Of a DNA stretch of 64,000 bases, positions 15,944 through 62,854 are shown piece by piece (positions within the stretch are counted from its first letter, which is position 1; the number at the start of each line of letters is the position of its first letter). The stretch comes from an uncultured Alphaproteobacteria bacterium (lineage in GTDB: Bacteria > Pseudomonadota > Alphaproteobacteria > Rhizobiales > Rhodomicrobiaceae). The DNA lies in the NCBI GenBank assembly GCA_963727575.1, contig CAVSIA010000038.1:83551-147550 (forward strand), read 5' to 3'. Below the pieces are notes generated by a model. The model saw nothing but the letters and a program-made list of their open reading frames with translations, ran no database searches and had not been told where the DNA came from. The position numbers were made by a program, and so were the translations under genes.

Positions 15944-16015
15944 TTCCTCACCTGTTGTTTTCTTGTTTTTGTTTGATCCGCGCCGGTTTTCCCGGCGGCA
16001 GCACGCTCATCGTCG

Positions 16016-17323: not shown

Positions 17324-17352
17324 TTCACACCTGATTGAGCTGTGTTAAGACT

Positions 17353-17366
17353 TGCAAACGTATGCA
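17353..17366. promoter_or_regulatory. LacI-type operator TGCAAACGTATGCA in the divergent promoter region between the HisD-like operon and FGE
   Basis: Matches the LacI-family consensus TGnAAnCGnTTnCA. The same motif recurs near 20369 and 33145. Confidence 0.4.
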
Positions 17367-17498
17367 GGACTTGTCAAGCGACTTCGCGCATCGCGATTTT
17401 GAGAAGGCACGGTGCTGACGAATGCGAGAAAAATCGCTGCAATAGCGAGCGGGCATGTGCTTCAATGACGCCGCGCGCGGCACCCAGGCATTGGAAGA

Positions 17499-18380
17499 AT
17501 GATGAGCGACAGCAGTAGGTTAGGCATTCGAGAGGCAGGGAACGTCGTCAGTCTGCCGGGCGGTGAGACCGTGGTCGGAACATCGCATCCGGTGATCGCA
17601 GCGGACGGCGAAGGGCCTGGCCGCCGCGTGAAGCTGCGTCCGTCTCGGATCGGCCGGTACGCCGTCACCAATGCCGAGTTCGGCGCCTTCGCAAAGGCGA
17701 CGGGCTACCTCACGGACGCCGAGCGCTTTGGCTGGTCCTATGTGTTTTACCTGCTGCTGCCGGAAGACCGGCGCGCCGGTCCGGTGCCGGAGGGGACCAG
17801 TTGGTGGCGCGTCGTCGAAGGGGCCAGCTGGCACGCACCGGAGGGACCGGATTCGTCGGTCGATGGACGACAGAACCATCCCGCCGTGCACATGTCCTGG
17901 AACGACGCTAGCGCGTTCGCCGTCTGGGCCGGAGGCCGCCTGCCGACGGAAGCCGAATGGGAGCACGCGGCGCGGGGCGGCCTTCCAAACCCAAAATTTC
18001 CCTGGGGCGATGACGAACCGGATGATGAAACCGTCTTCTGCAACATCTGGCAGGGACGCTTTCCCGACCAGAACACGCTGCGGGACGGCTATCTCGGCGC
18101 AGCCCCCGTCGACAGCTTCGCCCCGAACGGTTACGGGCTCCACAATATGTCGGGCAATATCTGGGAATGGTGCGCCGACGCATTCCGTATCCGCTCGCTT
18201 TCGAAGAGCGCCAAAAAGCGCAACGCCCTCGCCGCCGCGGAAAACGAGCGCGTGGTCAAGGGCGGATCGTATCTCTGCCACCGAAGCTATTGCTACCGCT
18301 ACCGCATCGCAGCACGCAGCGGCCGCAGCCCAGACACCTCGGCCGGAAACACCGGCTTCCGGATCGCCTTCGATCTTTGA
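17499..18380 (+). CDS. formylglycine-generating enzyme (FGE/SUMF1 family, sulfatase-maturating)
   Basis: 293 aa with typical FGE motifs (RLPTEAEWEHAARGG, GNIWEWCAD, GGSYLCHRSYCYRYR). Confidence 0.8.
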   Translation: MMSDSSRLGIREAGNVVSLPGGETVVGTSHPVIAADGEGPGRRVKLRPSRIGRYAVTNAEFGAFAKATGYLTDAERFGWSYVFYLLLPEDRRAGPVPEGTSWWRVVEGASWHAPEGPDSSVDGRQNHPAVHMSWNDASAFAVWAGGRLPTEAEWEHAARGGLPNPKFPWGDDEPDDETVFCNIWQGRFPDQNTLRDGYLGAAPVDSFAPNGYGLHNMSGNIWEWCADAFRIRSLSKSAKKRNALAAAENERVVKGGSYLCHRSYCYRYRIAARSGRSPDTSAGNTGFRIAFDL

Positions 18381-18415
18381 ACGCCGCTCCCATGCGAGCG
18401 CCTAAACGAACCGAA

Positions 18416-19927: not shown

Positions 19928-20004
19928 CTTGGGACGGGCCTCCCGCAACGGCGGTGAACGTCTTAGTCCCGGACCCGATTGCGATAATTGTCATCCGCGT
20001 GCGC

Positions 20005-20034
20005 TTGACAGCTTCGCCGGAACGTCCCTATCTT
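20005..20034 (+). promoter_or_regulatory. candidate sigma70-type promoter (TTGACA, 18 nt spacer, TATCTT) for the downstream ABC transporter operon
   Basis: Sequence match only. It lies in a 518 bp intergenic region. Confidence 0.3.
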
Positions 20035-20368
20035 TGGTATTCAATTCGGAAATCGAGACCGTTTGTTTCGATATGCTGTGCCTTAAGGGAAGCGACTTCC
20101 CGATGTCGAACGCCGACGACACCGCCGTCCATGCCCGATCGGAGAGCAGCGAGATCACGCTGCGCGGAGCGTGGAGGTGATGGCCTGGATCTTGGCCGGC
20201 GGGGCCGACACGTCTGGACGAATCGATGCAACCGGGGCGACGCGCGCCCTATCCGAATTCGACGCCTGCTCGTCAGCCGCCGGACGAAAGACAGGCGACA
20301 CACCTTAGCCCGATGGAGATCGCCGCAATCGCTGTGTAATGCACAGCCAAATGTATCAGACGCCAGTT

Positions 20369-20403
20369 TGCAAACGTATGCGTTTTGCCTTTGCAGCAAA
20401 GGC
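20369..20403. promoter_or_regulatory. LacI-type operator TGCAAACGTATGCG followed by a 17-bp perfect palindrome GCCTTTGCAGCAAAGGC, upstream of the sulfonate-type ABC transporter
   Basis: Direct sequence observation. The motif is shared with sites at 17353 and 33145. Confidence 0.4.
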
Positions 20404-20451
20404 GGCGAGGCCAAGCAGGCAATAAGCAATGGGAGGAAAGTCCAATTGGCG

Positions 20452-21279
20452 ATGACGACGATGGGCGGCGCCGAGACGACCGGTACCGCCGCCACCGGTA
20501 ATACCGGCAGCGGACTGAAAACGGTCCTGTGGAACGCTGCTTCACTGCTGATCGCCCTCGCGATCTGGCAGGTCGTGGCGATACTCGTTGCCTCGCCGTT
20601 CTTCCCCGGCCCCGTCGCCGTGCTCAATGCTTTCATCCGGCTCAGCTCCCGCGGCGACACCTTCGGAAACTCGCTCTGGACCCATTCCTGGGCAAGCATC
20701 GAGCGTGTCCTCGTCGGCTTCGGGCTCGGCGTTCTGGGGGGCGTTCCACTCGGCCTGCTGCTGGGGCTTTATCCGGCATGGTATGCACGGACCCGCTCGG
20801 TGCTGGAGCCGTTCCGCTTCATCCCTCCGATCGCGTGGATCCCACTCGCCATCATCTTCTTTTCCGGCCTCACCCGCTTCGCCTTTCTGATTTTTCTGGG
20901 TGCGTTCTTTCCGGTGTTTACGTCCACCCTCGTCGGTGTCGCCCGCGTCGAGCCGATCCACCGCAAGGTCGGCCTCGTGCACGGTGCCAGCAAAGCCTGG
21001 ACGCTATTTCATGTCGTCGTGCCCACCGTGCTGCCCGACATTCTCGCCGGCATGCGGGTCGGCCTCGGCGCCGCATGGCTGACCATCGTCGCGGCCGAGC
21101 TGGCCGGCGGGATTTCCGAGGGTTTAGGGCGCATGATGATCAATTATGCGGAGCTTCTCCAAGTACCCGAGGTCATCGTCGGTATGCTGCTGATCGGCTT
21201 CATCGGCTTCGCAATGAACGAAGTGCTGCTGCTCGCCGAGAGATACCTGTTCCGCTGGCGATGGCAGGTCAGCTTGTAA
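20452..21279 (+). CDS. ABC transporter permease, NitT/TauT family (SsuC/TauC-like)
   Basis: 275 aa; six-TM BPD-transporter permease with an EAA-like loop. It is the C-terminal part of the long ORF 19054..21279, whose upstream portion is Arg-rich junk. Confidence 0.75.
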   Translation: MTTMGGAETTGTAATGNTGSGLKTVLWNAASLLIALAIWQVVAILVASPFFPGPVAVLNAFIRLSSRGDTFGNSLWTHSWASIERVLVGFGLGVLGGVPLGLLLGLYPAWYARTRSVLEPFRFIPPIAWIPLAIIFFSGLTRFAFLIFLGAFFPVFTSTLVGVARVEPIHRKVGLVHGASKAWTLFHVVVPTVLPDILAGMRVGLGAAWLTIVAAELAGGISEGLGRMMINYAELLQVPEVIVGMLLIGFIGFAMNEVLLLAERYLFRWRWQVSL

Positions 21280-21289
21280 TGGGGCCGAT

Positions 21290-22099
21290 ATGCTGAAGAC
21301 CACGCACGGACAGGCTCCCGCCAAGGTCGAGGTCGACACCTCGCACCGCTACGGCGATCTGGTGGTCCATGAGCACCTCAAATTCGCGGTCGCCGCCAAT
21401 GAATTCGTCTGTATCTGCGGCCCCTCGGGATGCGGCAAGACCACGCTCCTGGACAGCCTCGCCGGCATTCTGAAGCCGACCGGCGGACATGTGCTGATCG
21501 ATGGCGCTCCGGCTGACCCGAAGCGGCAGAGCATCTCGTTCGTGTTCCAGGAACCTTCGACATTTCCGTGGCTTACGGTCAAGAACAACGTTGCGACCGG
21601 CCTCAGGGTGAAAGGCGGCGCGAGGAGCGACATTGACCGGAAGGTGCGCGAGACCATTGAGATCGTCGGCCTCACGGGCTTCGAGGATTACTATCCTCAC
21701 CAGATTTCCGGCGGCATGAAGCAGCGCGTTGCGATTGCGCGCGCTTTTGCGACGGATGCCGATCTCATTCTGATGGACGAGCCGTTCGTCAGTCTCGATC
21801 AGCCGACGCGCGAGCGCATGCAGAGGGAAGTGCTGGACATCTGGCGGCATCGTCTGCGTACGGTGATTTTCGTCACCCACAATATCGAGGAAGCCATCTT
21901 CCTCGCCGACCGCATTCTCATCCTTTCGGAAAAGCCTTCGCGGATCATCGCCGACATTACCGTCGAAATTCCCCGTCCGCGTGATCCGCTTGCATACGAA
22001 TTCACCGAATTGCGCGGCGAATGCGCCCGCCTGCTCACCCGACCCGCTGAATCGGCCGGAACAGCGCCACCGCCTCAGCTCCGCAAAGCGCGAACATAG
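21290..22099 (+). CDS. ABC transporter ATP-binding protein, NitT/TauT family (SsuB/TauB-like)
   Basis: Walker [10 protein letters not shown], signature [14 protein letters not shown], Walker B LILMDEPF. Confidence 0.8.
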
Positions 22100-22155
22100 G
22101 CAACCAACGACAAAAATCCGCGATCAAGCGGAAACCCTCAAACTGGGAGGATCCA

Positions 22156-23166
22156 ATGAAAGAAAGACGAAGCCTTTTGAAGATGCTCGCCGGCGCCGCG
22201 ATGAGTGCGGCACTGGTGGCAGGCACTTTGTCCGCAACGGCCCCTGCCCGCGCCGACGACAAGATGGTCACCGTGCGCCTTGGCGACCAGACCGGCTCCG
22301 AGGTCGATTACGCCGCGATCTGGGTCGCCGAGATGAACGGCTATTACAAGGACGAAGGCATCCAGATCGAGCGCAAGACATATGGCAACGGCCCTGCGGC
22401 CTTGCTCGACCTCAACAATCTCGAAGCCGCTCTCGCCGCCATTGCGCCGCATATGCAGTTCGTCGCCCGCGGCGGAGACCTCCGCATCGTGATGTCGGTC
22501 ACAAAAGGCAACGCTCCGATCGTCGGCAAGAAGCAATATAAGTCGGTAAAGGAACTGGACGGCAAAAAGGTCGGCACGCCCGGCATCGGCACCATCCATG
22601 ACGGCGTGCTCGGCTATATCGAACGCGCCGAAGGCATCAAGGTCCAGCACGTTCCCGCCAAAATCAGCGACGTCGCCGTCATGATCCAGAAGGGCGAAGT
22701 CGAGGCGTTCATCGGCTGGGAACCGGCTTCCGCCGCCGCCGTCGCGCAGGCGCCGGACCTGCTGCACTACATCCAGCGGATGCCGCCGATCGAGAACTCG
22801 GAAAGCCTGGAGCTCGCCTTCAGAACCGACTACATCAAGGAGCATCCCGAGGTGGTCGAACGCTTCGTCCGCGCGACCTTGCGCGGCATCGAGTGGATCA
22901 AGAAGAATGGCGACGAGGAAACGGCAAAGCTGCTCGCCAAGAAGGTGAACGATCCGAAGTCGTATAATGTCAATCTTGACGCGCTCAAATCCGTGGACGT
23001 TACGAAGCCGCGGCTCGACATGCCGTCGACGCGCCTTTGGCTGAAGACGATCGCCGATCAGGGCAAGATCCCCGAGGACCTCGTGAAGGATATCGACGGA
23101 TGGGTCGGCCGTTATCTCGACTACTCGTTCCTCGACAAGGCGGAAGCTTCGCTCAAATCCAAATAA
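22156..23166 (+). CDS. ABC transporter substrate-binding protein, NMT1/SsuA/TauA-like, with signal peptide
   Basis: 336 aa with an N-terminal signal (MKERRSLLKMLAGAAMSAALVAG) and a periplasmic-binding fold. A GGGAGG RBS is present. Confidence 0.75.
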   Translation: MKERRSLLKMLAGAAMSAALVAGTLSATAPARADDKMVTVRLGDQTGSEVDYAAIWVAEMNGYYKDEGIQIERKTYGNGPAALLDLNNLEAALAAIAPHMQFVARGGDLRIVMSVTKGNAPIVGKKQYKSVKELDGKKVGTPGIGTIHDGVLGYIERAEGIKVQHVPAKISDVAVMIQKGEVEAFIGWEPASAAAVAQAPDLLHYIQRMPPIENSESLELAFRTDYIKEHPEVVERFVRATLRGIEWIKKNGDEETAKLLAKKVNDPKSYNVNLDALKSVDVTKPRLDMPSTRLWLKTIADQGKIPEDLVKDIDGWVGRYLDYSFLDKAEASLKSK

Positions 23167-23249: not shown

Positions 23250-24416
23250 TCAGCCGCGAACCAGCGCGCGGCCGACGGCGCGGGCGATCACCCGCTCTTC
23301 ATTGGTGCCGATGGCCAGGATGGCCGTCCGCCCGGCGCCGATATTGACCTGATGGCTTTCATTCCGTGCGGTATCGATCTCAATGCCGAACCAGTCCATG
23401 TGCTCGCAGACGCGGCGGCGGATCAAGGCCGATTTCTCGCCGATGCCGCCGCAGAACACGAGCGCGTCGAGCCCGCCCATAACGGCAGTCAGGGCGCCGA
23501 GCTCGTAGCGGATACGGTGAACGAAATAGTCGATTGCCTGGGCCGCTTCAGGAGCGTCGGAGGCTTCCAGCTCGCGCATGTCGCTGGTCAGCCCGGAGAT
23601 GCCGATCAGGCCGCTTTCGCGATAGAGGATCTGCGAAATCTCTGCCGAATTCAGCTTCTCCTCGTCGAGCATATAGAGCAGCACGCCCGGATCGAGCTGG
23701 CCGCAGCGCGTGCCCATGGCGAGGCCGTCGAGTGCGGTGAAGCTCATCGTCGTGGCGATGCTCCGGCCGCCCTTCACCGCGCACATCGAAGCGCCGTTGC
23801 CGAGATGGGCGATGACGACGCGGCCCGCCGCCAGGGTCGGCGCGATCCGCGCCAACTCGCGGGTCACAAACTCATAGGAGAGCCCGTGAAAGCCGTAGCG
23901 CCTGATGCCCTTGTCGTAATAGCGGCGCGGCAGGGCGAAGGCGTCGTTCACCCAGGAATGGCCACGATGAAACGCGGTGTCGAAGCATCCGACCTGGGTC
24001 GCATCCGGAAAAGCCGCTGTCGCGCTTTCCACCGCCGCAAGATTATAAGGCTGGTGCAGCGGCGCCCACGGGATCATCTCGCGCAGGCGCGCCCTGACGG
24101 CAGCATCCAACACGCAAGGCGCGGTGAATTCCGAGCCGCCATGCGTGATCCGGTGCCCCACGCCCACGACGCGGCGGTCGCCGAACAGCGCTTTGGTATG
24201 CGCCAGGATCTCGCGGATGGCGATGGCGTGGTCGGCCTCGCCGATCTCATGCGTCTCGGTCTCGCCGCCGGCACGCCCAATGCGCAAACAGGCCGCGGAG
24301 CCAAGGTTCTCGACCTGGCCCCGCGCAAGTTCCTGGGGCTCGTCCCCCCGCGCAAACAGCGCGAATTTCATGGAGGACGAGCCCGCATTCAGCGTCAGGA
24401 TCGTTTCATCTGTCAT
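23250..24416 (-). CDS. ackA: acetate kinase
   Basis: 388 aa. N-terminal ILTLNAGSSSMKFALF, HRITHGG and a conserved C-terminal region. Confidence 0.85.
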   Translation of the reverse strand: MTDETILTLNAGSSSMKFALFARGDEPQELARGQVENLGSAACLRIGRAGGETETHEIGEADHAIAIREILAHTKALFGDRRVVGVGHRITHGGSEFTAPCVLDAAVRARLREMIPWAPLHQPYNLAAVESATAAFPDATQVGCFDTAFHRGHSWVNDAFALPRRYYDKGIRRYGFHGLSYEFVTRELARIAPTLAAGRVVIAHLGNGASMCAVKGGRSIATTMSFTALDGLAMGTRCGQLDPGVLLYMLDEEKLNSAEISQILYRESGLIGISGLTSDMRELEASDAPEAAQAIDYFVHRIRYELGALTAVMGGLDALVFCGGIGEKSALIRRRVCEHMDWFGIEIDTARNESHQVNIGAGRTAILAIGTNEERVIARAVGRALVRG

Positions 24417-24440
24417 CGAATGCCTGCGGAGCCAGCGGGT

Positions 24441-24559
24441 TAGAGCGTGATCAGGAAAAGTGGAAAACGGTTTTCCCTCCGATCACGCGATCAGCAAAGG
24501 AATTTTGGAGCGGGCCAAAAGCGAAGTAGTTTCTATCCAAGGTGATCCCGCTCTAGAGC
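24441..24559. repeat. about 119-bp MITE/RIME-like intergenic repeat with terminal inverted repeats (copy 1)
   Basis: About 80% identical to 42951..43066. Terminal inverted repeats TAGAGCGTGATCAGG / GGTGATCCCGCTCTAGA, internal 8-bp stem GCGTGATC/GATCACGC enclosing GGAAAACGGTTTTCC, and an end palindrome CCGCTCTAGAGCGG. Confidence 0.6.
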
Positions 24560-26331
24560 GGCCGCTGGGGCTGCATGTCGTCGGGGCTGATCCGGGCGAC
24601 GACGACCGGTGTCTTCATCGCGTCGCGCCGGAACGGCTCGCCGAGCTCCTGGTTGAGCACCGCCTCGATGAAGGTGGTGACATTGCCGCTCATCTGCTCC
24701 TCGACCGCGACACGCAGCGCCTCGGTCAGTTCCGCCATGGTCGTCGCCTGCACGCCCTTGACGCCGCAGCCTTGCGCCACCTTGGCGTATTCGACGCCGA
24801 GATTGAGCTCGGTGCCGACGAAATTGTCGTCGAACCACAAGGTCGTGTTGCGCTTCTCCGCACCCCATTGATAGTTGCGGAAGATCACCATGGTGATGCC
24901 CGGCCAGTCATTCCGTCCGCATGCGGTCATTTCGTTCATCGAAATGCCGAAGGCGCCGTCGCCGGCAAAGCCGACGCAAGGGACATCCGGCCGCCCGATC
25001 TTTGCGCCCAGGATTGCCGGGAAGCCGTAGCCGCACGGGCCGAACAGACCCGGGGAGAGATATTTGCGCCCCGCCTCGAAGGTCGGATAGGCATTGCCGA
25101 TGGCGCAATTGTTGCCGATGTCGGTGGAGACGATCGCGTCCTTCGGCAGCGCCGCCTGGATCGCCCGCCACGCCATACGCGGCGACATCCGCTCCGGCTC
25201 GCGGGTTCGCGCACGCTCGTTCCAGCTGGTGCCGGCGTCGTCCTCCTCGTGATCCATCGAGGAGAGCGTCTGCAGCCAAGCCGATTTGGTCTGGTGAATC
25301 AGCCCCTTGCGCTCGTCGCGCCCTGCGTCGCCGGCTTTCGGCGAAAGCTGCTTCAGGATGCTCTCGGCAACCTTCTTGGCATCGCCGCAGATCCCGACCG
25401 TGACCTTCTTGGTCAAACCGATGCGGTCCGGGTTGATGTCGACCTGGATGATCTTGGCGTCCTTCGGCCAGTAGTCGATGCCATAGCCGGGAAGCGTGGA
25501 GAACGGATTGAGCCGCGTGCCGAGCGCCAGCACCACATCGGCCTTGGAGATCAGCTCCATTCCGGCTTTGGAGCCGTTATAGCCGAGCGGGCCACAGCTC
25601 AAGGGGTGCGAGCCGGGGAAAGCGTCATTGTGCTGATAGCCGCAGCAGACCGGCGCATCGAGACGCTCCGCCAACTGACGGCTGGCCTCGATCGCACCGC
25701 CCAGCACCACGCCCGCGCCGTTCAGGATCACCGGGAATTTCGCCTCGGAAAGCAGCCGCGCCGCCTCGGCAATCGCCTCATCGCCGCCGGAGGAGCGCTC
25801 GAGCTGCACACGCTGGGGCAGCTCGATGTCGATGACCTGGGTCCAGTAATCGCGCGGCACGTTGATCTGCGCCGGAGCCGAGCCACGCCATGCGCGCTCG
25901 ATAACGCGGTTCAGCACCTCGGCGATGCGGGAGGGGTCGCGGACTTCTTCCTGATAGCAGACGCAATCCTCGAACAGCGCCATCTGCGGCATCTCCTGGA
26001 AACCGCCCTGCCCGATGGTCTTGTTCGCCGCCTGCGGCGTGACCAGCAGCAGCGGCGTATGGTTCCAATAGGCGGTCTTCACCGGCGTGACCATATTGGT
26101 GATGCCCGGACCATTCTGCGCGATCATCATCGACATCTTGCCGGAGGCGCGGGTATAGCCGTCGGCCATCATGCCGGCATTGCACTCATGCGCACAGTCC
26201 CAGAACTTGATGCCCGCTTTGGGAAACAGATCGGAGATCGGCATCATCGCGGAGCCGATAATCCCGAATGCGTGCTCGATGCCGTGCATCTGCAGCACCT
26301 TCACGAAGGCTTCTTCGGTCGTCATCTTCAT
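24553..26331 (-). CDS. xsc: sulfoacetaldehyde acetyltransferase (ThDP-dependent)
   Basis: 592 aa from the internal Met of ORF 24553..26403. N-terminus MKMTTEEAFVKVLQMHGIEHAFGIIGSAMMPISDLFPKAGIKFWDCAHE... matches the highly conserved Xsc N-terminus as I remember it, and ThDP-binding motifs are present. Confidence 0.85.
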   Translation of the reverse strand: MKMTTEEAFVKVLQMHGIEHAFGIIGSAMMPISDLFPKAGIKFWDCAHECNAGMMADGYTRASGKMSMMIAQNGPGITNMVTPVKTAYWNHTPLLLVTPQAANKTIGQGGFQEMPQMALFEDCVCYQEEVRDPSRIAEVLNRVIERAWRGSAPAQINVPRDYWTQVIDIELPQRVQLERSSGGDEAIAEAARLLSEAKFPVILNGAGVVLGGAIEASRQLAERLDAPVCCGYQHNDAFPGSHPLSCGPLGYNGSKAGMELISKADVVLALGTRLNPFSTLPGYGIDYWPKDAKIIQVDINPDRIGLTKKVTVGICGDAKKVAESILKQLSPKAGDAGRDERKGLIHQTKSAWLQTLSSMDHEEDDAGTSWNERARTREPERMSPRMAWRAIQAALPKDAIVSTDIGNNCAIGNAYPTFEAGRKYLSPGLFGPCGYGFPAILGAKIGRPDVPCVGFAGDGAFGISMNEMTACGRNDWPGITMVIFRNYQWGAEKRNTTLWFDDNFVGTELNLGVEYAKVAQGCGVKGVQATTMAELTEALRVAVEEQMSGNVTTFIEAVLNQELGEPFRRDAMKTPVVVARISPDDMQPQRPL

Positions 26332-26417
26332 CGTCGCAGTTCCTTTCAGGTCCCTCGCAAGGGTATTCGATGTGAGAGCGTTGCATGGGCGCCGGGCGGG
26401 CAAATCGAAATCAGCTC

Positions 26418-27311
26418 CTAAATAGCAGGCGCGCCCTTCGCTGTCGGCAGTCTCTCGCGCAGGAGAACGGGAATCTGGCTCGGCACGTCGGCAACCGCGA
26501 CGCCGGCCGATTCCAGAGCCTTGCGCTTAGAGGGATAATCGCCTTTTCCGCCCGAGACAATCGCGCCGGCATGTCCCATCTTCTTGTCCGGCGGGGACTG
26601 GCGGCCGGCGATGAAGGCCACGACCGGCTTTTTCATCGTCTGCGCATACTCCGCCGCTTCCTCTTCCGCATTGCCGCCGATCTCGCCGCAAATGACCACG
26701 GCCTCGGTTTTATCATCTTCGTCAAGGATGCGCAGCGCGTCCGCCGTCCGGGTGCCGATCATCGGATCGCCGCCGACGCCATAGAACACCGACTGGCCAA
26801 GTCCCGCCTGGGCAATGTTGAGGCTGATCAGCGTGCCGAGGCTTCCCGAGCGAGAGATGACGCCGATAGTACCTGGCTTGAAAACGCGCGGATTAAACGC
26901 GGGCATGATGCCGACGAAGCATTCGCCGACGGTAACGAGGCCGGCAGTGTTCGGGCCGACGATGCGCGTACCGTTCGCCCCCGCGGCGACATGCATCTCC
27001 ATGACGTCATGCGCGGGGATATGCTCGGTCAGGCAGACCAGCATCTTCGCCCCCGCCTCGCAGGCGTCGATGGCGGCCTCCTTGGCCATCATCGGCGGGA
27101 TGAACATGCAGGCGATCTCGAAGGGCGTCTGCTTCGCCGCCTCGCGCGCATTGGCAAAGACGGGCACGCCGAGATATTCGGTGCCCGCCTTGCGCGGATT
27201 GACACCGCCGACGACGGTGGAGCCGTAAGTCTGCATCGCCTCGGTCCAGAACGAGCCCTGCTTGCCCGTGATGCCCTGGACGAGAATGCGGTCGCTCTTG
27301 CGCGGGATCAT
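26418..27311 (-). CDS. ADP-forming CoA ligase alpha subunit (SucD-like CoA-binding subunit)
   Basis: 297 aa with a CoA-binding Rossmann N-terminus and a phospho-His loop region ([12 protein letters not shown]). Confidence 0.75.
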
Positions 27312-28447
27312 GCCACGGCCCTCCCTTCGGCGGCGGCGACCGCGGCTTTGACCGCGTCGTCCATCAGGTCGTAAGGCTCGATGCCGAGCCGCTCGCGAAC
27401 CAGCGCCACCGCCTCATCCTCGCCGGTGCCGTGGATGGTGAAGAACACGGGGATGTCCGGCCGCAGCTCTTCCCAGGCATTGACGACGCCCGCGGCCATG
27501 ACGTCGGTGCGGGCGAAGGCGCCGCAGAAATTGACCAGCAGGCTCTTGATGTTCGGGTTCTCCAGAAGGATCGACAGCGCCGTCTTCGACTTGGTGTAAG
27601 CCTCGCCGCCGATTTCGAGGAAGTTGGCGGGCGAGCCGCCGTAATGGGCGATGACGTCCATCGTCGTCATGGTGAGGCCGGCGCCGTTGGCGAGCACGCC
27701 GACGGAGCCGCCGAGCTCGATATATTTGAGCCCCGCCGCGGCCGCCTTGGCTTCGAGCCGCGTCTGCTTTTCACCCGCCGCAAGAGACGCGATCTCCTCC
27801 TGGCGCGGAGCGGCGCTGTCGTCGACGGTCAGCTTGCAGTCGAGCGCCACGACCGCGTCGCCGGTCATCACCACCAGCGGGTTGATTTCGATCAGCTCGG
27901 CATCGAGCGCGCGATAGGCAGCGTAGAGGCGCAGCAGCGTCGCCGCCAGCTCAGCCTCGACCGCATCGAGGCCAAGCCCGTCGAGCGCCGCCCGCGCCGT
28001 CGTGTCGCTCAGCCCTTGCGCGATCGGGATCGCGAACCGCCGCATGGCGCGCGGGTCCTTCTCCGCGGCCTCCTCGACATCCATGCCGCCCATCGGCGAG
28101 AACAGCAGCATCGGCCCTTTGGACGCATCGTCATTGACGATGGCGGCGTAAAGCTCGCGCGCGATCGAGGTTTGCTCCTCGATCAGCACCTTCTCCACCG
28201 GCCATCCGCCGATCTCCATGCCGATGATCGCCTCGGCGTGGCTGCGGGCCTCTTCCGGGGAGGTCGCCAGCTTGATGCCGCCGGCCTTGCCGCGCTTGCC
28301 GGTCGGCACCTGCGCCTTGACCACGCATGGGCCGATCCGCGCCGCCGAAGCCTCGGCTTCGCCCGGCGTCCAGGCAAGCTCGCTTTCCGGCACCGCAATT
28401 CCGAAGCGCTTCAGCAGCGGCTTGGCGGCGTGCTCCTCAAAGTTCAT
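27308..28447 (-). CDS. ADP-forming CoA ligase beta subunit (SucC-like ATP-grasp subunit)
   Basis: 379 aa with ATP-grasp fold motifs. It overlaps the alpha subunit gene by 4 nt (translational coupling). Confidence 0.75.
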   Translation of the reverse strand: MNFEEHAAKPLLKRFGIAVPESELAWTPGEAEASAARIGPCVVKAQVPTGKRGKAGGIKLATSPEEARSHAEAIIGMEIGGWPVEKVLIEEQTSIARELYAAIVNDDASKGPMLLFSPMGGMDVEEAAEKDPRAMRRFAIPIAQGLSDTTARAALDGLGLDAVEAELAATLLRLYAAYRALDAELIEINPLVVMTGDAVVALDCKLTVDDSAAPRQEEIASLAAGEKQTRLEAKAAAAGLKYIELGGSVGVLANGAGLTMTTMDVIAHYGGSPANFLEIGGEAYTKSKTALSILLENPNIKSLLVNFCGAFARTDVMAAGVVNAWEELRPDIPVFFTIHGTGEDEAVALVRERLGIEPYDLMDDAVKAAVAAAEGRAVA

Positions 28448-28466
28448 CTGCGACGAAGCCTCGTTT

Positions 28467-29918
28467 TTATTTACCGTAGCGATCCCAAAACGGCCCGAAA
28501 AGATCTTCCTCGGACGGTTTGTCCTCCGGAATGGTCGTGACCAGATGGGTGATGTTGATGAAGTTGGTGTAGTTCAGATTGTCGCTGATCGTGTTGCCCG
28601 CCCAGGTGCCGCCGGCCATCGACAGCGTGAACGGCAGCGAATTGTCGAAGCTGCCGCCATTGCCGAATGTGTGCGCCTGGTTGACGAGCACCCGCACGAC
28701 ATCGGTCTCCGCCGCCAACTCGCGGGCGTGGTCCATGGTCTTGGTGTGGATGCCGGTCGAGTGGCCCTTGCCGTTGACGTTCAGCACGTCGGCGACGATG
28801 CGCTTGGCGTCCTCGAAATCGCGTGCGCGGTAGACGGTGAGGACCAGCGACAGCTTTTCGTCGGCGAAGTCGTGCTTGCCGCCGACCTTCGGCTCCTCGA
28901 CCAGGAAAAATTTGGATTTGCGCGCCTCATCCGCGAGCCCCATCGTCGCGGCGACGACGTCGGCGTCCTTGGCGATGATGTGGCGGTTGAGCTTGCCGTT
29001 CACCCAGAGCGTGGAGCGGATGCTCTCGCGTTCGGTCTCGCTGGCGCGCCAGCCGCCGGCACGTTCGAGCGCGGCAATGGCGTCGTCGTAGACGTCGTCC
29101 AGAATGATGACGGCGTTCTCCGAGGAGCACGAGGTGGCGTTGTCGAAAATCTTCGAAGCGCAGATCTTGGCCGCCGCGTCGTCGAGATCGGCGGTCGAGT
29201 CGATGATGACCGGCACGTTCCCAGCGCCGACGCCGATGGTCACGGTGCCGGACTGCATCGCGCGGCGGACGTTGTCCTGCGAGCCGGTGACGACGGCAAG
29301 GTCGACCTGCCGCATCAGTTCCTCGGTCATCGCTTTGGATACCGGCGGCGGCAGGATCTGGACGAGGTCTTCCGGATGGCCGGCTTTCTTCAGCTCGGCG
29401 CGGATCAGATCGACGGTCTTGCCGGTGGTGACGGCGCCAGACGGCGACGGCGCGATGATCACGGCATTGCCTCCCTTTATCGCCATCATCGCCTTGTTGG
29501 CAGGGGTTGCCGCCGGGTTGGTCGACGGGCATACCGCGCCAACGACGCCAACCGGCTTGCCGTAGCGGACCATGCCGCGGTCCGGGTCCTCGGAGATCAC
29601 GCCGACCGTCTTGGCGCGGAGGAGATCGCGCAGCGTGCCGAAGGTCTTGCGCTGGTTCTTGACGATCTTGGAGGCGACATTGCCAAGCCCGGTATCTTCG
29701 ACCGCCAGTTCAGCCAGCATCCGCGCATTGTCCGGCTTGTAGATCGCCCAGGCGATCGCGCGCACCGCATCGTCGACGCGAGCCTGATCGTGGTTCTCGT
29801 AAGCAGCCATGGCGGCGCGGGCGCGGGCGACGGCCTTTCCGACCTCGATCTTCGGATCGGGCTCGGCTCCGGCAACCTCGCGCACGCCTGCTGATTTCAT
29901 GTCGGTCGGTGATGACAT
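28467..29918 (-). CDS. CoA-acylating aldehyde dehydrogenase (PduP/EutE family; SauS-like sulfoacetaldehyde dehydrogenase (acylating))
   Basis: 483-aa ALDH fold with a catalytic Cys region (...NATSCSSENAVI...). Functional label is from context with xsc and the ligase. Confidence 0.7.
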   Translation of the reverse strand: MSSPTDMKSAGVREVAGAEPDPKIEVGKAVARARAAMAAYENHDQARVDDAVRAIAWAIYKPDNARMLAELAVEDTGLGNVASKIVKNQRKTFGTLRDLLRAKTVGVISEDPDRGMVRYGKPVGVVGAVCPSTNPAATPANKAMMAIKGGNAVIIAPSPSGAVTTGKTVDLIRAELKKAGHPEDLVQILPPPVSKAMTEELMRQVDLAVVTGSQDNVRRAMQSGTVTIGVGAGNVPVIIDSTADLDDAAAKICASKIFDNATSCSSENAVIILDDVYDDAIAALERAGGWRASETERESIRSTLWVNGKLNRHIIAKDADVVAATMGLADEARKSKFFLVEEPKVGGKHDFADEKLSLVLTVYRARDFEDAKRIVADVLNVNGKGHSTGIHTKTMDHARELAAETDVVRVLVNQAHTFGNGGSFDNSLPFTLSMAGGTWAGNTISDNLNYTNFINITHLVTTIPEDKPSEEDLFGPFWDRYGK

Positions 29919-30059
29919 CGCTTTGGCCTCCAGTCGTCCCCCCGGACGCTCTGCCCGGGGCCATCTTCCACATGTCTCATTCCGGTTCGGTCGGCCGGAG
30001 AGGCAACATCCAATTCCGTCAGCCCACTGACGGGACGCCGCCTCGCCGGCCTTTCGACG

Positions 30060-31031
30060 CTATAGATCCTTGAGGAGCTCCGTCAGGAACTTCTGACGCC
30101 GCTCCCACATCGCCTTCACCTCATCGCGCCCCATGATGCGCACGGGCGAGCCGCCATTCGCCATCTGCTTGGCGACCTGCTTGTCCTTGAACATCGCAGG
30201 GACCACTTTCGCCAGCTTGTCGATCACGTCCTGCGGGGTACCTTTCGGAGCCATGATGCCGCGGAAGTTCACCGAGGAATCGTCAACATCGAAGCCCTGC
30301 TCCTTGAACGTCGGCACGTCGGGCAGGAACTCCTTGTTCCGCTCCAGATCCGCAATGGCGAGGATCTTCAGCGTGTCCTGGCTGCGATAGGCGTCGGACA
30401 GATTGTTGACGCCCGCCATGACCTGGCCGCCGATCACCGATTTCAACGCCGGTGCGCCGCCCTGATGGGGAACGTAGGTGAGCTTGGCGCCGGTGACCTT
30501 CTCCATTTGCAGGAAGGCGATGTGGTGCCCGACATAGAGCCCCGCGCCGGAAATCGTCACCTTGCCGGGGTTCTCCTTGGCGAACTTGACGAGATCGGCG
30601 ACCGAGTTGAACGGGCTGTCCTTACCGACCACGAGCACGGCGGGATCGGCGCCCCAATTGGCGATCGGCTCGAGATTGTCGATGGTATATTTGGTCTTGA
30701 ACTTGATCGACTGGGCGATGAAATGCGGCACGTTATAAGCGGCCAGCTCGTAGCCGTCGGTCTTCGCGCCCGAGGCGAAGGCGTTCCAGCCGACCTTGCC
30801 GCCCGCGCCGGGCTTGTTGATGATCACGATCGGCTGGCCGAGATATTCCTCATTGCCTGCAACCATCGTGGCGATGCGGGCCTGGAAGTCGGTCGCGCCG
30901 CCCGGACTGTAGGACACCATCAGGCTCACCGGCCGGTCGGGATATTGTTGCGCCCCGGCCGGAGCCGAGAGCGTCAGTGCGGCAAGCGCTGCCAGTCCTG
31001 CAAAAACTCTTCTCATTCGCATTCCTCCCAT
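30060..31031 (-). CDS. tctC: tripartite tricarboxylate transporter substrate-binding protein (TctC/Bug family)
   Basis: Signal peptide plus Bug-family fold, 323 aa. Confidence 0.8.
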   Translation of the reverse strand: MGGMRMRRVFAGLAALAALTLSAPAGAQQYPDRPVSLMVSYSPGGATDFQARIATMVAGNEEYLGQPIVIINKPGAGGKVGWNAFASGAKTDGYELAAYNVPHFIAQSIKFKTKYTIDNLEPIANWGADPAVLVVGKDSPFNSVADLVKFAKENPGKVTISGAGLYVGHHIAFLQMEKVTGAKLTYVPHQGGAPALKSVIGGQVMAGVNNLSDAYRSQDTLKILAIADLERNKEFLPDVPTFKEQGFDVDDSSVNFRGIMAPKGTPQDVIDKLAKVVPAMFKDKQVAKQMANGGSPVRIMGRDEVKAMWERRQKFLTELLKDL

Positions 31032-31077
31032 ATCTCAGTGTCGTTTCGTCCCGGTATCCAGGATCTTCCTTCTTGTC

Positions 31078-31554
31078 CTAGAGAAGCACGCCGCGCGGGG
31101 TCTGCACCTGCAGCCCGACCGAAAACACGACGTAGATGAGCGCGATGAAGCCTGCGGTGATCGCAAGGCGGACGGCCCAGGTCCGCGGGCTCAAATGCGG
31201 CTCAGAGTCATAGAGCGTATAAAGCGCCAGGAACGCCACCGCCGCGCCCGCGTAATAGCCGAGCCCGGTCGCCAGCACGAACACATAGAGCAGCATCAGC
31301 GCGATCCCCGGCGCGACCGCCACGACCTGCGCGAGCGTGAAGCCCGCCCCCGTGCGGTTCGCGCCGCGCAGCGCGCGGGCAAAGGCGAAGATGCCGAGGC
31401 CGACCATTGTTACGGCGATAAGCTGCGGAAAAAGATAGGGCGTCGGGTCGTCGACCCGGAAGCTGACATAGGCGAGCCACAGGCCGAGCGCGAGCAGCAG
31501 CCCGGCGGCGATGGATTGCTGCGTGCGGCCCGCATTGTCCTGTTGCCAGCTCAT
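31078..31554 (-). CDS. tctB: tripartite tricarboxylate transporter TctB-family small membrane protein
   Basis: 158 aa with four TM helices. Position between tctC and tctA. Confidence 0.65.
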   Translation of the reverse strand: MSWQQDNAGRTQQSIAAGLLLALGLWLAYVSFRVDDPTPYLFPQLIAVTMVGLGIFAFARALRGANRTGAGFTLAQVVAVAPGIALMLLYVFVLATGLGYYAGAAVAFLALYTLYDSEPHLSPRTWAVRLAITAGFIALIYVVFSVGLQVQTPRGVLL

Positions 31555-33062
31555 GTCAGCGCTCCTTCCACCGCATCGATCCGCCGGAGCCGGATCTCGG
31601 ACGCCACCGAATAGGCGAGCGAGGCCAGCACCAGGGCGATCAGCAGCAGATTGAGCGGCCCGGTGCAGAAATAGGCCAGCACCCCGTCCTGCGCCTCGGC
31701 GATGATGCGGCCCTGGACATAATTGGTCTCCGCGATCGGCCCGAGGATGACGCCGAGCACCAGCGGGGCCGGGCTGAAGCCGTATTGCTGAAGCACATAC
31801 ATGCCGAGGCCGAGCATCAGCATGACCACGACATCGGACTGCGAATTCTGCACCGAATAGGCGCCGAACACGGCAAAGACGAGGATGGCGCTAGCGAGAA
31901 TGGCGGGCGGAATGCGGATCACATGCGCGGCGAGCCCGGCGATGTAAAGGCCGAAGACCATCATCAGCGCTTGCCCGATCAGCAGCGAATTGATGAACGC
32001 CCAGGCCACGTCGCCGTGCTGGGTGAACAGGTTCGGGCCGGGAAAGATGCCATGGATCAGCAGGCCGCCGAGCAGCACCGCCGCGGTCGGGCTGCCCGGA
32101 ACGGAGAGCGTCAGCAGCGGTACGAGCGAGGGGCCGACCATGGCGTTGTTCGCGGTCTCGGCGGCGATCACGCCCTCGGCTTCGCCGGTGCCGAAAACGC
32201 GGCGACGCGGTGAGAACCGGCGGACCTGGTCATAGGAGACGAGCCCGGCAATCTGGCCGCCGGCGCCGGGAATGAGGCCGATGATGATGCCGACGACGCT
32301 GCCGATCGAGCAGGCGCGCACATGCCGGAAGGTCTCCCTGACCGATGCCCAGACGCTGTGCGGCCGCACCTCCATCATGTTGTATTCCCGGCCCCGGCGC
32401 GCGTTCTGCAGCATCTCGATGATCTGCGGAACAGCGAACAGGCCGATCAGCGCGGCAACGATATTGACCCCGCCCTCCAGATGCTCGGAGAACACGAAGC
32501 GCTCCACGCCCTGGACCGAGTCGTAGCCGATCATCGCGATCCAGAGGCCGATGCAGCCGGCCAGCAGGCCCTTGACCACGGATTTGGAGTCGAGCGAGCC
32601 GATGATGGTGACGCCGAGAATGGCGATCCAGAACAGATGCGACGGGCCGAAGCCGAGCGCCCATTTCGCCAGGATCGGCGTGAAGAAGATGAGGACCAGA
32701 ACGCCGAGCACGCCGCCGATGAAGGAGGAAATGAAACAGAGCTGCAGTGCCTTGGCGCCGTCGCCGCGCTTGGCCATCTCGTAGCCGTCGAGCGCCGTGG
32801 CGATATTGGCCGGCGCGCCGGGGATCTTCAGCAGCACGGCGCTGACGGCTCCGCCGGCGACGGTCGCGGTATAGGCCGCGCCGAGCAGCATCAGTCCCTG
32901 CGCGGGGTCCATGTGGAACGTGAACGGTATCAACAACGCCACCGCCATCGTCGGGGAAAGCCCCGGCGTCGCCCCAAGAAGCAGCCCACCGACCGTCCCG
33001 GCGCACAGGATCGCCATGGACGATAGCGTGAAGACGGGGCCAAAATGCTGCAGGAATTCCAT
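31551..33062 (-). CDS. tctA: tripartite tricarboxylate transporter TctA-family permease
   Basis: 503 aa from MEFLQHFGP...; multi-TM TctA family. It overlaps tctB by 4 nt. Confidence 0.8.
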   Translation of the reverse strand: MEFLQHFGPVFTLSSMAILCAGTVGGLLLGATPGLSPTMAVALLIPFTFHMDPAQGLMLLGAAYTATVAGGAVSAVLLKIPGAPANIATALDGYEMAKRGDGAKALQLCFISSFIGGVLGVLVLIFFTPILAKWALGFGPSHLFWIAILGVTIIGSLDSKSVVKGLLAGCIGLWIAMIGYDSVQGVERFVFSEHLEGGVNIVAALIGLFAVPQIIEMLQNARRGREYNMMEVRPHSVWASVRETFRHVRACSIGSVVGIIIGLIPGAGGQIAGLVSYDQVRRFSPRRRVFGTGEAEGVIAAETANNAMVGPSLVPLLTLSVPGSPTAAVLLGGLLIHGIFPGPNLFTQHGDVAWAFINSLLIGQALMMVFGLYIAGLAAHVIRIPPAILASAILVFAVFGAYSVQNSQSDVVVMLMLGLGMYVLQQYGFSPAPLVLGVILGPIAETNYVQGRIIAEAQDGVLAYFCTGPLNLLLIALVLASLAYSVASEIRLRRIDAVEGALT

Positions 33063-33144
33063 TAGCAACTCACCCTGATAACGTTTCCTTCTAGCGGGTC
33101 TGGTGCCAGCCTTTGTGATCATGCTAGGTAATGAAAACGGCCTT

Positions 33145-33158
33145 GCAAACGTTTTCAT
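33145..33158. promoter_or_regulatory. LacI-type operator TGCAAACGTTTTCA between tctA and the divergent LacI gene
   Basis: Close match to the TGnAAnCGnTTnCA consensus. An adjacent half-site TGAAAACGG lies at about 33132. Confidence 0.45.
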
Positions 33159-33229
33159 TTGGCAAAAGTGCTGTGCTTCGCCATTGATCGGGTCAGAAAT
33201 GGGACGCAAATTGCTGCGCTCGAGCGTGC

Positions 33230-34252
33230 CAGGGCATCGTCGACGTCGCAGCGCGGGCGAATGTTTCCCCGGCGACCGTCTCTCGCTATTTCAACGCGCC
33301 GGAGATTGTCCGCTACGCCACGCGCAAGCGGATCGAGGAGGCGGTGAACGCGCTCGGCTACGTGCCGAACGGCGCGGCTCGGAGCCTCAATCGCGGCGCG
33401 AGCGGCACGATCGGCCTCATCGTACCGACCATCGACAACGCCATCTTCGCCGAGCTGGCGCAGGCTTTCTCGACTGCGCTGTTCCGTCATTCCCGCACCA
33501 TGCTGATCGCCGCGCATGGCTACGATCTTGCGCGCGAGGCGATCCTGGTGGAGTCCCTCCTCCAGCACCGCGTCGACGCGCTTGCCTTGGTCGGTCTGGA
33601 ACATGAGCAAGCCACCTTCGAGCAGCTCCAGCGGCGCGGCATCCCGACCGTGATGCTCTGGAACTACCGCAAGGGCGGCCGTCTCCCTTGTGTCGGCGTC
33701 GACAACCGCGAGGTCGGGCGCGAGGCGGCCGGGCATCTGATCGGGCTCGGCCATGAGGACATTCTGTTCCTGTTCGCCGAGGGGGGGATGAACGACCGAG
33801 CCGCCGACCGGCGATCCGGAGCCTTTGCGGCAATGACCGAGGCGGGCATTCCGGTGCGTCCCGAGCGCAGCGTCATCTGCCCCTACGACGTCCAGGCGGC
33901 GAAGGAAACTGCGGTGCGGCTGCTCGATGTCGACGACCGGCCGACGGCGATCTTCTCGGGCAACGACGTGATTGCGCAGGGCGTGCTGTTCGCGGCGCTG
34001 GCGCTCGGCCTTCGCATCCCGGAGGAGCTTTCGATCATCGGCATCGGCGATTTTCGCGGCTCTTCGGCGGTCGAGCCGGGCCTGACCACGGTGCGCATCC
34101 CGGCGCTGCTGATCGGCACGCGGGCAGCGGAGATCCTGGTCGAGATGATCGAGGCGACCGACGGCGAGACCGGCTATGACGAGCGCTTCGCTCCGGAGCT
34201 CCTCGTGCGCGGCTCCACGGGGCGGCGGCAAGGGATCGGGACGCTCTCCTGA
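33230..34252 (+). CDS. LacI-family transcriptional regulator (candidate regulator of the sulfonate island); N-terminal start unclear, possible frameshift
   Basis: HTH (GIVDVAARANVSPATVSRYFNAPEIVRYATRKRIEEAVNALGYVPN) lies in frame upstream of ORF 33344..34252, but no in-frame ATG/GTG/TTG is found after the stop at 33185. Confidence 0.6.
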   Translation, partial: QGIVDVAARANVSPATVSRYFNAPEIVRYATRKRIEEAVNALGYVPNGAARSLNRGASGTIGLIVPTIDNAIFAELAQAFSTALFRHSRTMLIAAHGYDLAREAILVESLLQHRVDALALVGLEHEQATFEQLQRRGIPTVMLWNYRKGGRLPCVGVDNREVGREAAGHLIGLGHEDILFLFAEGGMNDRAADRRSGAFAAMTEAGIPVRPERSVICPYDVQAAKETAVRLLDVDDRPTAIFSGNDVIAQGVLFAALALGLRIPEELSIIGIGDFRGSSAVEPGLTTVRIPALLIGTRAAEILVEMIEATDGETGYDERFAPELLVRGSTGRRQGIGTLS

Positions 34253-41254: not shown

Positions 41255-41349
41255 GACGCATGTTCTCCTCAGGTCTCATTTCCGACTATCATGCGCGCCC
41301 GGAACCGGTCGACCAATCAGATTGACGGCACAGATCGCCTCGGTGAATA

Positions 41350-41363: not shown

Positions 41364-41460
41364 GAGGCCGAATTGACAATTCCGGAAGCGCCCCGATAGA
41401 TGTCAATGTGCAAGTCTGGGCCGACGCATCCGCAGCGGCGCCTCTGAATGACGGGACCAT

Positions 41461-62853: not shown

Positions 62854-62854
62854 G

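Follow-up and report, generated by a model that had tools for sequence, protein, structure and literature searches.

The 64 kb stretch analysed here (the window; 64,000 nt of contig CAVSIA010000038.1 in assembly GCA_963727575.1, from an uncultured alphaproteobacterium of the Rhodomicrobiaceae) very probably carries an operon of eight genes, of the SauXYZ-SauS-SauCD-Xsc type, for breakdown of sulfoacetate, a C2 sulfonate, to acetate and sulfite. The cluster occupies positions 23250-33062 of the minus strand in the order tctA-tctB-tctC-sauS-sucC-like-sucD-like-xsc-ackA, and comprises the following genes:

31551-33062, minus strand: tctA (503 aa, ATG at 33062; PF01970, E 1e-133), the sauX-like large membrane subunit of a tripartite tricarboxylate transporter (TTT)
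31078-31554, minus strand: tctB (158 aa; PF07331), the sauY-like small membrane subunit
30060-31031, minus strand: tctC (323 aa; PF03401), a sauZ-like periplasmic solute-binding protein and candidate sulfoacetate receptor
28467-29918, minus strand: sauS (483 aa; NF047625), an acylating aldehyde dehydrogenase (ALDH)
27308-28447, minus strand: sucC-like (sauC-like) gene (379 aa; PF08442 and PF00549), ATP-grasp beta subunit of the ligase
26418-27311, minus strand: sucD-like (sauD-like) gene (297 aa; PF02629 and PF00549), alpha subunit of the ligase, with coenzyme A (CoA)-binding domain and phosphohistidine
24553-26331, minus strand: xsc (592 aa from the ATG at 26331; TIGR03457, NF005713), sulfoacetaldehyde acetyltransferase
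23250-24416, minus strand: ackA (388 aa; PF00871, E 1e-107; TIGR00016), acetate kinase and last gene

This is an ordinary further example of a known system, and the same cluster is present in many public genomes. The small variations found in the window are the ackA ending and a LacI-type regulator with a conserved operator, and every unusual element has a published precedent except that regulator.

Gene identities and layout were observed directly. All eight genes are intact, unlike several other genes of the window that are split between frames, and in a sequence of ~65% G+C the third-position GC statistics singled out one coding frame for each. These coding-type codon statistics, with very strong hidden Markov model (HMM) matches, uphold the genes, coordinates and strand given by an earlier interpretation made from the letters alone (the sequence-only reading). 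That reading had counted ten genes; the cluster has eight, and inclusion of the divergent regulator gene outside 23250-33062 brings the total to nine. It had also described 4-nt overlaps or short gaps between the genes. Such overlaps occur at tctA/tctB and sucC/sucD, and the other gaps range from 19 to 141 nt (tctB-tctC 46, tctC-sauS 141, sauS-sucC 19, sucD-xsc 86 and xsc-ackA 136 nt). No terminator-like site was found on the coding strand within the cluster. The xsc-ackA spacer contains a nested inverted repeat (GCGTGATC...GGAAAACCGTTTTCC...GATCACGC; 24445-24488), and as a whole folds no better than shuffled sequences (z = -0.97).

Homology, synteny and published work on homologues point to the substrates and the direction of the following pathway. 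Transcription would start from a promoter upstream of tctA, the -35 box of which is overlapped by a LacI-type operator. The TctC-type periplasmic protein would bind sulfoacetate and TctAB would import it, after which SauCD would convert sulfoacetate, CoA and ATP to sulfoacetyl-CoA, ADP and Pi via the phosphohistidine of its alpha subunit. SauS would reduce sulfoacetyl-CoA to sulfoacetaldehyde with NADPH, the thiamine diphosphate (ThDP)-dependent Xsc would turn sulfoacetaldehyde and Pi into acetyl phosphate and sulfite, and AckA would use acetyl phosphate and ADP to yield acetate and ATP. The route from sulfoacetate through sulfoacetyl-CoA and sulfoacetaldehyde to acetyl phosphate and sulfite had been put forward in the sequence-only reading, as had the replacement of SauT by a SucCD-type ligase and of SauU by a TTT importer, and these proposals are supported by HMM matches, synteny in more than 80 loci and the biochemistry of the Bilophila homologues.

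The three enzymes flanking the ligase genes gave clear profile matches. The product of 28467-29918 is, by its equivalog match, an acylating sulfoacetaldehyde dehydrogenase, SauS: it scored 780.5 bits against a cut-off of 600 for NCBIfam NF047625 ('AcylSulfactDhSauS'), whilst the next-best model, AdhE, reached 337 against a cut-off of 951 and every other ALDH model lay far under its cut-off. Motif inspection indicated Cys264 as the candidate catalytic residue. The product of 24553-26331 is likewise assigned by its profiles as the ThDP-dependent sulfoacetaldehyde acetyltransferase Xsc, with 956.1 bits against 676.4 for the equivalog TIGR03457 and 1042.1 against 620 for NF005713, all three TPP_enzyme domains (PF02776, PF00205 and PF02775) and 81-93% identity to the Xsc proteins of related clusters. 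Its ThDP-binding motif, GDG-X26-N (GDGAFGISMNEMTACGRNDWPGITMVIFRN), falls within the GDG-X(24-27)-N pattern, and Xsc thereby withstands the check proposed in the sequence-only reading, under which loss of ThDP-motif conservation would have counted against it. AckA scored 358 bits against 293 for TIGR00016, an acetate/propionate kinase subfamily model. Xsc and AckA, which the sequence-only reading had regarded as recognizable, thus both lie above curated cut-offs.

The two-subunit ligase most likely represents a SauCD-type ADP-forming sulfoacetate-CoA ligase distinct from housekeeping SucCD, as judged from profiles, motifs and gene context. A profile check of 26418-28447 returned the full SucCD domain set (ATP-grasp_2 with Ligase_CoA, and CoA_binding with Ligase_CoA; Pfam) and, in the alpha subunit, the phosphohistidine loop MGHAGA, which contains His247, but neither subunit reached the curated SucCD cut-offs. 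The SucC-like subunit scored 358.8 against 370 and 325.8 against 375.6 with the two SucC models, and the SucD-like subunit 334.9 against 353.2 and 328.8 against 336 with the two SucD models. The beta-subunit loop reads NFCGAFARTD in the window, compared with NIFGGIVRCD in Escherichia coli SucC and NIFGGITRAD in Thermus (canonical NIFGGI[VT]R[CA]D); we place the NIFGGI loop of succinyl-CoA synthetase at its site for succinate and the phosphohistidine. The altered form NFCGAFAR[TC]D was invariant in 32 of 32 SauC-like relatives encoded beside a SauS-like ALDH gene; these share 54-83% identity with the window protein, and Azospirillum and an actinobacterium, Rhodococcus, are among their sources. 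At 76-85% identity, the proteins closest to the window SauC-like protein belong to Hyphomicrobiaceae metagenome-assembled genomes (MAGs) and 'Ca. Filomicrobium marinum'. The window pair therefore has the fold and domain order of E. coli and Thermus SucCD (ATP-grasp beta subunit, phosphohistidine alpha subunit, GHAGA loop) and differs from them in its sub-threshold scores, its beta-subunit loop and its location in a sulfonate operon rather than an operon of the tricarboxylic acid cycle.

A different substrate was considered for these enzymes. The ALDH and the SucCD-like pair might act on succinate or malonate, producing the CoA ester and from it the semialdehyde, and merely neighbour xsc-ackA, a generic TTT and a LacI regulator of sugar-acid type. 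The closest solved structures are in keeping with this, being succinyl-CoA synthetase for the ligase subunits (E. coli 1jkj, Thermus 3ufx) and acylating succinate-semialdehyde dehydrogenase for SauS (8cei); in addition, the SucCD models were missed by only a few bits and LacI-family regulators usually sense sugars. Purified SauCD of Bilophila wadsworthia (BwSauCD) also had residual activity with malonate (7%) and 3-sulfopropanoate (20%), but was inactive with succinate, isethionate, 3-hydroxypropionate and two other compounds (PMC10413351). Further against a succinate or malonate pathway, the ALDH exceeds the SauS equivalog cut-off by 180 bits, the canonical NIFGGI loop is invariantly substituted in SauC-like proteins, and most SauCD-type loci examined have xsc linked to the ALDH-ligase pair, among them Azospirillum and Rhodococcus plasmids with TauE or a molybdopterin oxidoreductase set. 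We consider it highly improbable. Acetate was not in the BwSauCD panel (PMC10413351), and the suggestion in the sequence-only reading that the ligase could also make acetyl-CoA from acetate is unsupported.

Assignment of the ligase to sulfoacetate was strengthened by comparison of 83 loci (L006-L088) with the TctC type of the window, based on the best 80 of at least 558 GTDB matches, all at least 64% identical. Conservation of the layout was directly visible in this set: tctA-(tctB)-tctC-sauS was nearly universal in the alpha- and gammaproteobacteria represented. The gene following sauS was sauCD in 24 of the 83 loci, as in the window, and an AMP-binding SauT-like gene in 41. Because sauCD and the SauT-like gene fill the same slot after sauS, the SucCD-like pair appears to do the job of SauT. 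This exchange is a non-orthologous displacement and the strongest in silico argument for the role of the ligase.

The exchange also bears on the direction of the pathway. Run in reverse, as in the sulfo-transketolase (sulfo-TK) enzymes SqwD/SqwKL, the ALDH and ligase would convert sulfoacetaldehyde derived from taurine or isethionate to sulfoacetyl-CoA and then to sulfoacetate plus ATP, with Xsc-AckA as a parallel ATP-yielding branch. Both reactions are reversible and the reverse direction is documented for homologues (PMC10413351, PMC12890257); an ABC transporter with an SsuA/TauA-like binding protein also adjoins the operon. Against this, the operon starts with a binding-protein-dependent TTT, a class of transporters that are importers. 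The Bilophila homologue has been proposed as a sulfoacetate importer (PMC10413351), the 41 related loci with a SauT-like enzyme fill the ligase slot with an effectively irreversible AMP-forming reaction, and Xsc on the same transcript would compete for sulfoacetaldehyde. No sulfoacetaldehyde-generating enzyme (Tpa, TauXY, IseJ) was recognized among the scanned open reading frames (ORFs) of the window. We view reverse operation as very unlikely. Import and breakdown of sulfoacetate are favoured by the binding-protein-dependent importer, by the location of xsc within the operon and by the interchange of SauCD and AMP-forming SauT-like ligases.

The three transporter genes are adjacent and match the TctA, TctB and TctC profiles (PF01970, PF07331 and PF03401). 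The window TctA is 59-85% identical to the TctA adjoining SauS in loci L006-L088. The TctC type occurs in at least 558 GTDB species representatives, with 64-84% identity among the best 80; Pelagibacter, Neptunomonas, Leisingera (65%) and Amylibacter (67%) are among the best matches, and matches in the protein collection were 72-85% identical. Leisingera and Amylibacter are members of the roseobacter group, and the TTT of Amylibacter has been labelled SauXYZ-like (PMC12625764). In 73 of the 83 loci sauS was on the same strand as tctC, immediately downstream except in L017 and L063, and the remaining loci were mostly contig ends or had sauS on the opposite strand. Linkage of TctC to SauS matches the property given by Liu et al. 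for SauZ homologues (UniRef50_Q165A0; PMC10413351). The transporter and enzyme genes are separated by the longest gap of the operon:

29919-30059, minus strand: tctC-sauS spacer, non-coding, with long GC-rich hairpins predicted by folding

The spacer has a minimum free energy of -69.6 kcal/mol (z = -3.35; 0 of 200 shuffled sequences fold as well), and a gap of 70-320 nt is found at this junction in all but two of the 73 loci, L058 (30 nt) and L069 (44 nt). Judged by its structure and position, the spacer probably acts in mRNA stability or partial termination and would set the ratio of binding protein to enzymes; these spacers look like lineage-specific hairpins placed after the binding-protein gene. 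A conserved regulatory RNA was considered and rejected, as the spacers do not align (36% identity) and Rfam finds nothing. The long, strongly structured gap also admits two transcription units, in which LacI-tctABC would serve an unrelated carboxylate and sauS-sauCD-xsc-ackA would have its own promoter within the 141 nt. Exchangeability of the module favours such a division, in that the enzymes of L002 and L005 are 80% identical yet accompanied by another TTT and an IclR regulator. On the other side, sauS follows this TctC family in nearly all of the 83 loci, a hallmark of SauZ according to Liu et al. (PMC10413351); the spacer hairpin lacks a T-tract; and the LacI-type operator tracks the regulator gene in sau loci. 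We judge two units to be very unlikely and a single operon for sulfoacetate to be the better account.

Gene arrangements beyond the transporter and SauS were more variable. The complete layout of the window, with a LacI gene divergent from tctABC-sauS-sauCD-xsc, recurred in L007, L011, L015, L024, L025, L027-L029, L031, L035 and L039; L007, from Filomicrobium sp., additionally carries pta. Most SauCD-type copies end with pta or nothing instead of ackA, and xsc-ackA endings recurred in L089 (a Hyphomicrobiaceae MAG with AckA 60% identical), L024 and the gammaproteobacterial L038 and L041. Several close relatives had the arrangement IclR divergent from tctC-tctB-tctA-sauS-sauC-sauD-xsc(-pta). 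In L002, L003 and L005 the SauS, SauC, SauD and Xsc proteins are 80-89% identical to those of the window, yet their TTT proteins are only 30-34% identical, and the window TctC is likewise only ~30% identical to the TctC of IclR-type sau clusters. In L089 the tctC-B-A order occurs together with a LacI regulator. Closely related enzymes beside an unrelated TTT and IclR in close relatives indicate that the transporter-regulator modules of sau clusters have been swapped repeatedly.

Two plasmid-borne groups, from cultured bacteria, carried accessory genes that the window lacks. Plasmid p4 of Azospirillum argentinense Az39 (L091) bears a sau-type cluster in which pta and xsc are joined by three genes for a molybdopterin oxidoreductase set. 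The same set, comprising a molybdopterin subunit, a 4Fe-4S subunit and a DmsC-like anchor, is also found in L006, and by its domain architecture could be a SoeABC-type sulfite dehydrogenase. Rhodococcus plasmids (sp. DK17-type; L092 is plasmid pDK2 of sp. DK180) carry xsc, pntAB, a major facilitator superfamily (MFS) transporter, IclR and TauE, and the PntAB transhydrogenase is a possible supply of NADPH for SauS. No gene for sulfite handling (TauE, SoeABC or SorAB; exporter or dehydrogenase) was found among the ~55 window ORFs scanned against Pfam.

The ackA ending has consequences for the energetics of the proposed pathway. Since the ligase would spend one ATP and AckA would regain one, the module would be ATP-neutral, with the sum sulfoacetate + NADPH -> acetate + sulfite; the commoner pta ending would instead yield acetyl-CoA at the cost of one ATP. 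The claim of the sequence-only reading that there is no phosphotransacetylase gene holds for the 64-kb window, where the only match to pta was spurious (32% over 142 residues), and applies to that stretch only. With ackA and no pta within 64 kb, the acetate must be re-activated elsewhere or excreted. Xsc feeding AckA has been described in Taurinivorans muris (PMC10507020).

Control of the operon was addressed through the region between tctA and the divergent regulator gene, which contains the following features:

33199-34252, plus strand: LacI-family regulator gene, divergent from tctA (Pfam Peripla_BP_1/3), candidate repressor of the sulfoacetate operon
33144-33158, minus strand: candidate LacI-type operator ATGAAAACGTTTGCA, exact match, overlapping the tctA -35 box
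33121-33148, minus strand: putative sigma-70-like tctA promoter, TTGCAA (33148-33143), N16, TAGCAT (33126-33121)

A LacI-family regulator, as named in the sequence-only reading, does exist here, but a 1-nt insertion following codon 12 disrupts its reading frame. Translation from the ATG at 33199 yields MGRKLLRSSVPG, and the helix-turn-helix (HTH) sequence IVDVAARANVSPATVSRYFN continues in the next frame from ~33233; homologues read M[SA]RKLLR..PGIVDVA in one frame, where the window has an extra G in CCAGGGCATC. Both the HTH and the effector domain are present, the gene resembles LacI-family models along its entire length if reading starts at 33233, and residues 12-340 of the protein share 65% identity with the LacI of L007, which is intact. 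As DctM, biotin carboxylase, an IorB-like molybdoenzyme subunit and gamma-glutamyltranspeptidase are also split between frames in the window, the frameshift may be an assembly error; possible explanations are a homopolymer error or a real inactivation, and in the latter case the operon would be derepressed or constitutive.

The operator candidate lies inside a 10-nt inverted repeat (AATGAAAACG-N10-CGTTTTCATT; 33130-33159). LacI-family operators follow a palindromic TGnAAnCGnTTnCA-type consensus, which the sequence TGAAAACGTTTGCA fits. Co-occurrence of operator and regulator was directly observed: with up to two mismatches allowed and within 320 nt upstream of tctA, 23 of the 27 loci that have a divergent LacI gene contained the motif, compared with two of the 46 that have none, and there were just nine further matches in 1.38 Mb. 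The tctA promoter, predicted from sequence, agrees with consensus at 8 of 12 positions and lies under the threshold of the consensus scan, and its position and TTGCA/TAnnnT boxes are kept in related loci. The LacI-family protein is a likely repressor of the operon, relieved by sulfoacetate or a pathway intermediate; both repression and effector are suggested by homology, synteny and published work on homologues. Our literature search found no paper linking a LacI regulator or operator to sulfoacetate.

A more specific proposal is that a dedicated LacI repressor responsive to sulfoacetate (or to sulfoacetyl-CoA or sulfoacetaldehyde) acts at ATGAAAACGTTTGCA and governs an ackA-ended, ATP-neutral 'desulfonation cassette', for which we regard the chances as evenly balanced. 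The LacI family is known mainly for sugar and nucleoside effectors, and the proposal, if true, would add a sulfonate effector to it. It would also define a marker by which regulons for sulfoacetate use could be recognized in marine alpha- and gammaproteobacteria, and the main product of the cassette may then be sulfite or sulfur rather than acetyl-CoA.

Loci L025-L029, L035 and L039, from Rhodospirillaceae and other alphaproteobacterial MAGs, have ~1.0-1.1 kb between lacI and tctA with an extra gene for a hydrophobic membrane protein, and a second operator-like site, ATGAAAA[CT]ATTTGCA, beside the lacI start; in L035 this region has an apparent extra inserted segment of ~1.7 kb. Elsewhere in the window, operator-like palindromes were observed in the divergent region between the hisD-like and formylglycine-generating enzyme (FGE)-sulfatase genes (TGCAAACGTATGCA; 17352-17367) and upstream of an ABC permease gene (TGCAAACGTATGCG; 20369-20383). 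At up to three mismatches the window contains five such palindromes, compared with 0.65 expected by chance. There are three LacI-family regulators in the window (4287-5405, 33199-34252 and 41461-42549), and the extra palindromes may belong to another of them.

Published systems account for most of these elements. Liu et al. (2023, J Biol Chem 299:105010, PMC10413351) purified SauCD, the NADPH-dependent SauS and the TTT binding protein SauZ of B. wadsworthia, the last of which, part of the TTT SauXYZ, binds sulfoacetate with a Kd of 0.13 µM. The window shares with Bilophila sauXYZ-sauS-sauCD the TTT, the acylating dehydrogenase, the two-subunit ligase and the first two chemical steps, and gene order (transporter, sauS, sauC, sauD) is apparently the same, judged from consecutive UniProt accessions (E5Y8P8 and E5Y8P7 for SauC and SauD). 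The systems differ downstream: Bilophila, a sulfite-reducing deltaproteobacterium, converts sulfoacetaldehyde to isethionate (TauF), which is cleaved by the O2-sensitive glycyl-radical enzyme IseG, whereas the window, from an alphaproteobacterium with a LacI-type regulator, encodes Xsc and then AckA. In the similarity network of Liu et al., SauZ homologues of alpha-, gamma- and deltaproteobacteria are nearly all encoded beside SauS, with SauT or SauCD, and Xsc is often in their neighbourhood (PMC10413351). In 2025, a sauSCD and TTT cluster was reported for the MAG of an aerobic marine gammaproteobacterium, which encodes xsc and pta as well (PMC12625764); this sponge symbiont, 'Ca. Ahtobacter symbioticus' (Arenicellales; mSystems 2025), is predicted to have the same TTT-sauS-sauCD-Xsc module in one genome. 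The statement in the sequence-only reading that the combination is not a described variant is unsupported in view of these two studies and of the frequency of the layout in public genomes, including unannotated copies such as L007 and L089, which share the LacI regulator of the window, and in L089 also the xsc-ackA ending.

The sauRSTU and xsc-pta genes of Cupriavidus necator H16 (Weinitschke et al. 2010, as cited in PMC10413351) specify the same intermediates with Xsc as the desulfonating enzyme, and SauS of C. necator is in the same equivalog family as that of the window. Relative to C. necator, SauT is exchanged for SauCD, the MFS transporter SauU for the TTT, the IclR-type SauR for the LacI-type regulator and Pta for AckA. 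No AMP-binding, MFS or IclR gene was found within the window operon, and the sole AMP-binding ORF found (52875-54512) lies 20 kb away in a fatty-acid-type cluster. Acylating sulfo-aldehyde dehydrogenases paired with SucCD-type ligases are also described for sulfo-TK (SqwD/SqwKL) and 3-sulfopropionate (HpfX/HpfYZ) pathways (as cited in PMC12890257); these belong to anaerobes, run oxidatively, make ATP and excrete the sulfo-acid, have neither Xsc nor a TTT importer, and in the case of HpfYZ use a C3 substrate.

Several points weigh against a sulfoacetate operon as outlined here. Assignment to the SauCD and SauZ families rests on synteny and the SauS HMM, and of the two TTT types in sau clusters, ~30% identical to each other, at most one is the close SauZ family. 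The structured tctC-sauS gap and the 136-nt xsc-ackA gap may leave room for internal promoters or attenuation, and the regulator gene of the window carries a frameshift. An ending in ackA that lacks pta makes acetate costlier to assimilate, in terms of ATP, than the pta route, and a role as carbon source, as sulfur or sulfite source, or in overflow is conceivable in each case. Finally, Liu et al. found mostly SauT in alpha- and gammaproteobacterial clusters and argued that aerobes favour the AMP-forming enzyme (PMC10413351).

Degradation of sulfoquinovose and taurine commonly yields sulfoacetate, the mineralization of which is for that reason part of the marine and soil sulfur cycle. As the enzymes and transporter type were characterized in 2023, the window itself adds little. 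Its relatives show that the ADP-forming SauCD and Xsc route is not confined to anaerobes and is frequent in aerobic alphaproteobacteria (Hyphomicrobiaceae, Rhodospirillales-type MAGs and Azospirillum plasmids), occurring also in Rhodococcus. Their SauCD and SauS genes still bear the annotation succinyl-CoA ligase, 'ATP-grasp protein' or generic aldehyde dehydrogenase, and the ligase genes appear in public records as 'ATP-grasp domain-containing protein', 'CoA-binding protein' or succinate-CoA ligase. Annotation could make use of two markers, the LacI-type operator ATGAAAACGTTTGCA and the SauC motif NFCGAFAR[TC]D. A small physiological question arises from the ackA variant, that of ATP-neutral desulfonation as opposed to acetyl-CoA assimilation.

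The region directly downstream of ackA (14429-23166) has the appearance of an organosulfur neighbourhood and contains the following:

14429-15943: arylsulfatase-like gene, under the equivalog cut-off
16016-17323: histidinol-dehydrogenase-family paralogue (hisD-like)
17499-18380: FGE-like gene
18167-19927: gamma-glutamyltranspeptidase, matching its model in two stretches
20529-23166: ABC transporter, with an ATPase best matching SaoA/TauB-type models and an SsuA/TauA-like binding protein

Other genes of the window are disrupted. DctM covers only model positions 139-413, with a DctP/Q region upstream in other frames (11314-14394), the biotin carboxylase is truncated after 292 aa (6179-7561), and the IorB-like molybdoenzyme subunit lies in two overlapping frames (60540-62889). 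The rate of about one frameshift per 10 kb is suggestive of an error-prone assembly or many pseudogenes. Scans of the window for tRNA genes and against Rfam were both empty. On the plus strand, a CoA-ester cluster (48077-54512) encodes a family III CoA-transferase, an acyl-CoA dehydrogenase, an enoyl-CoA hydratase, a thiolase and the AMP-binding ligase; it is unrelated to the sau operon and is preceded by genes for a sugar-type ABC transporter, a LacI regulator and a PfkB kinase (39708-47985).

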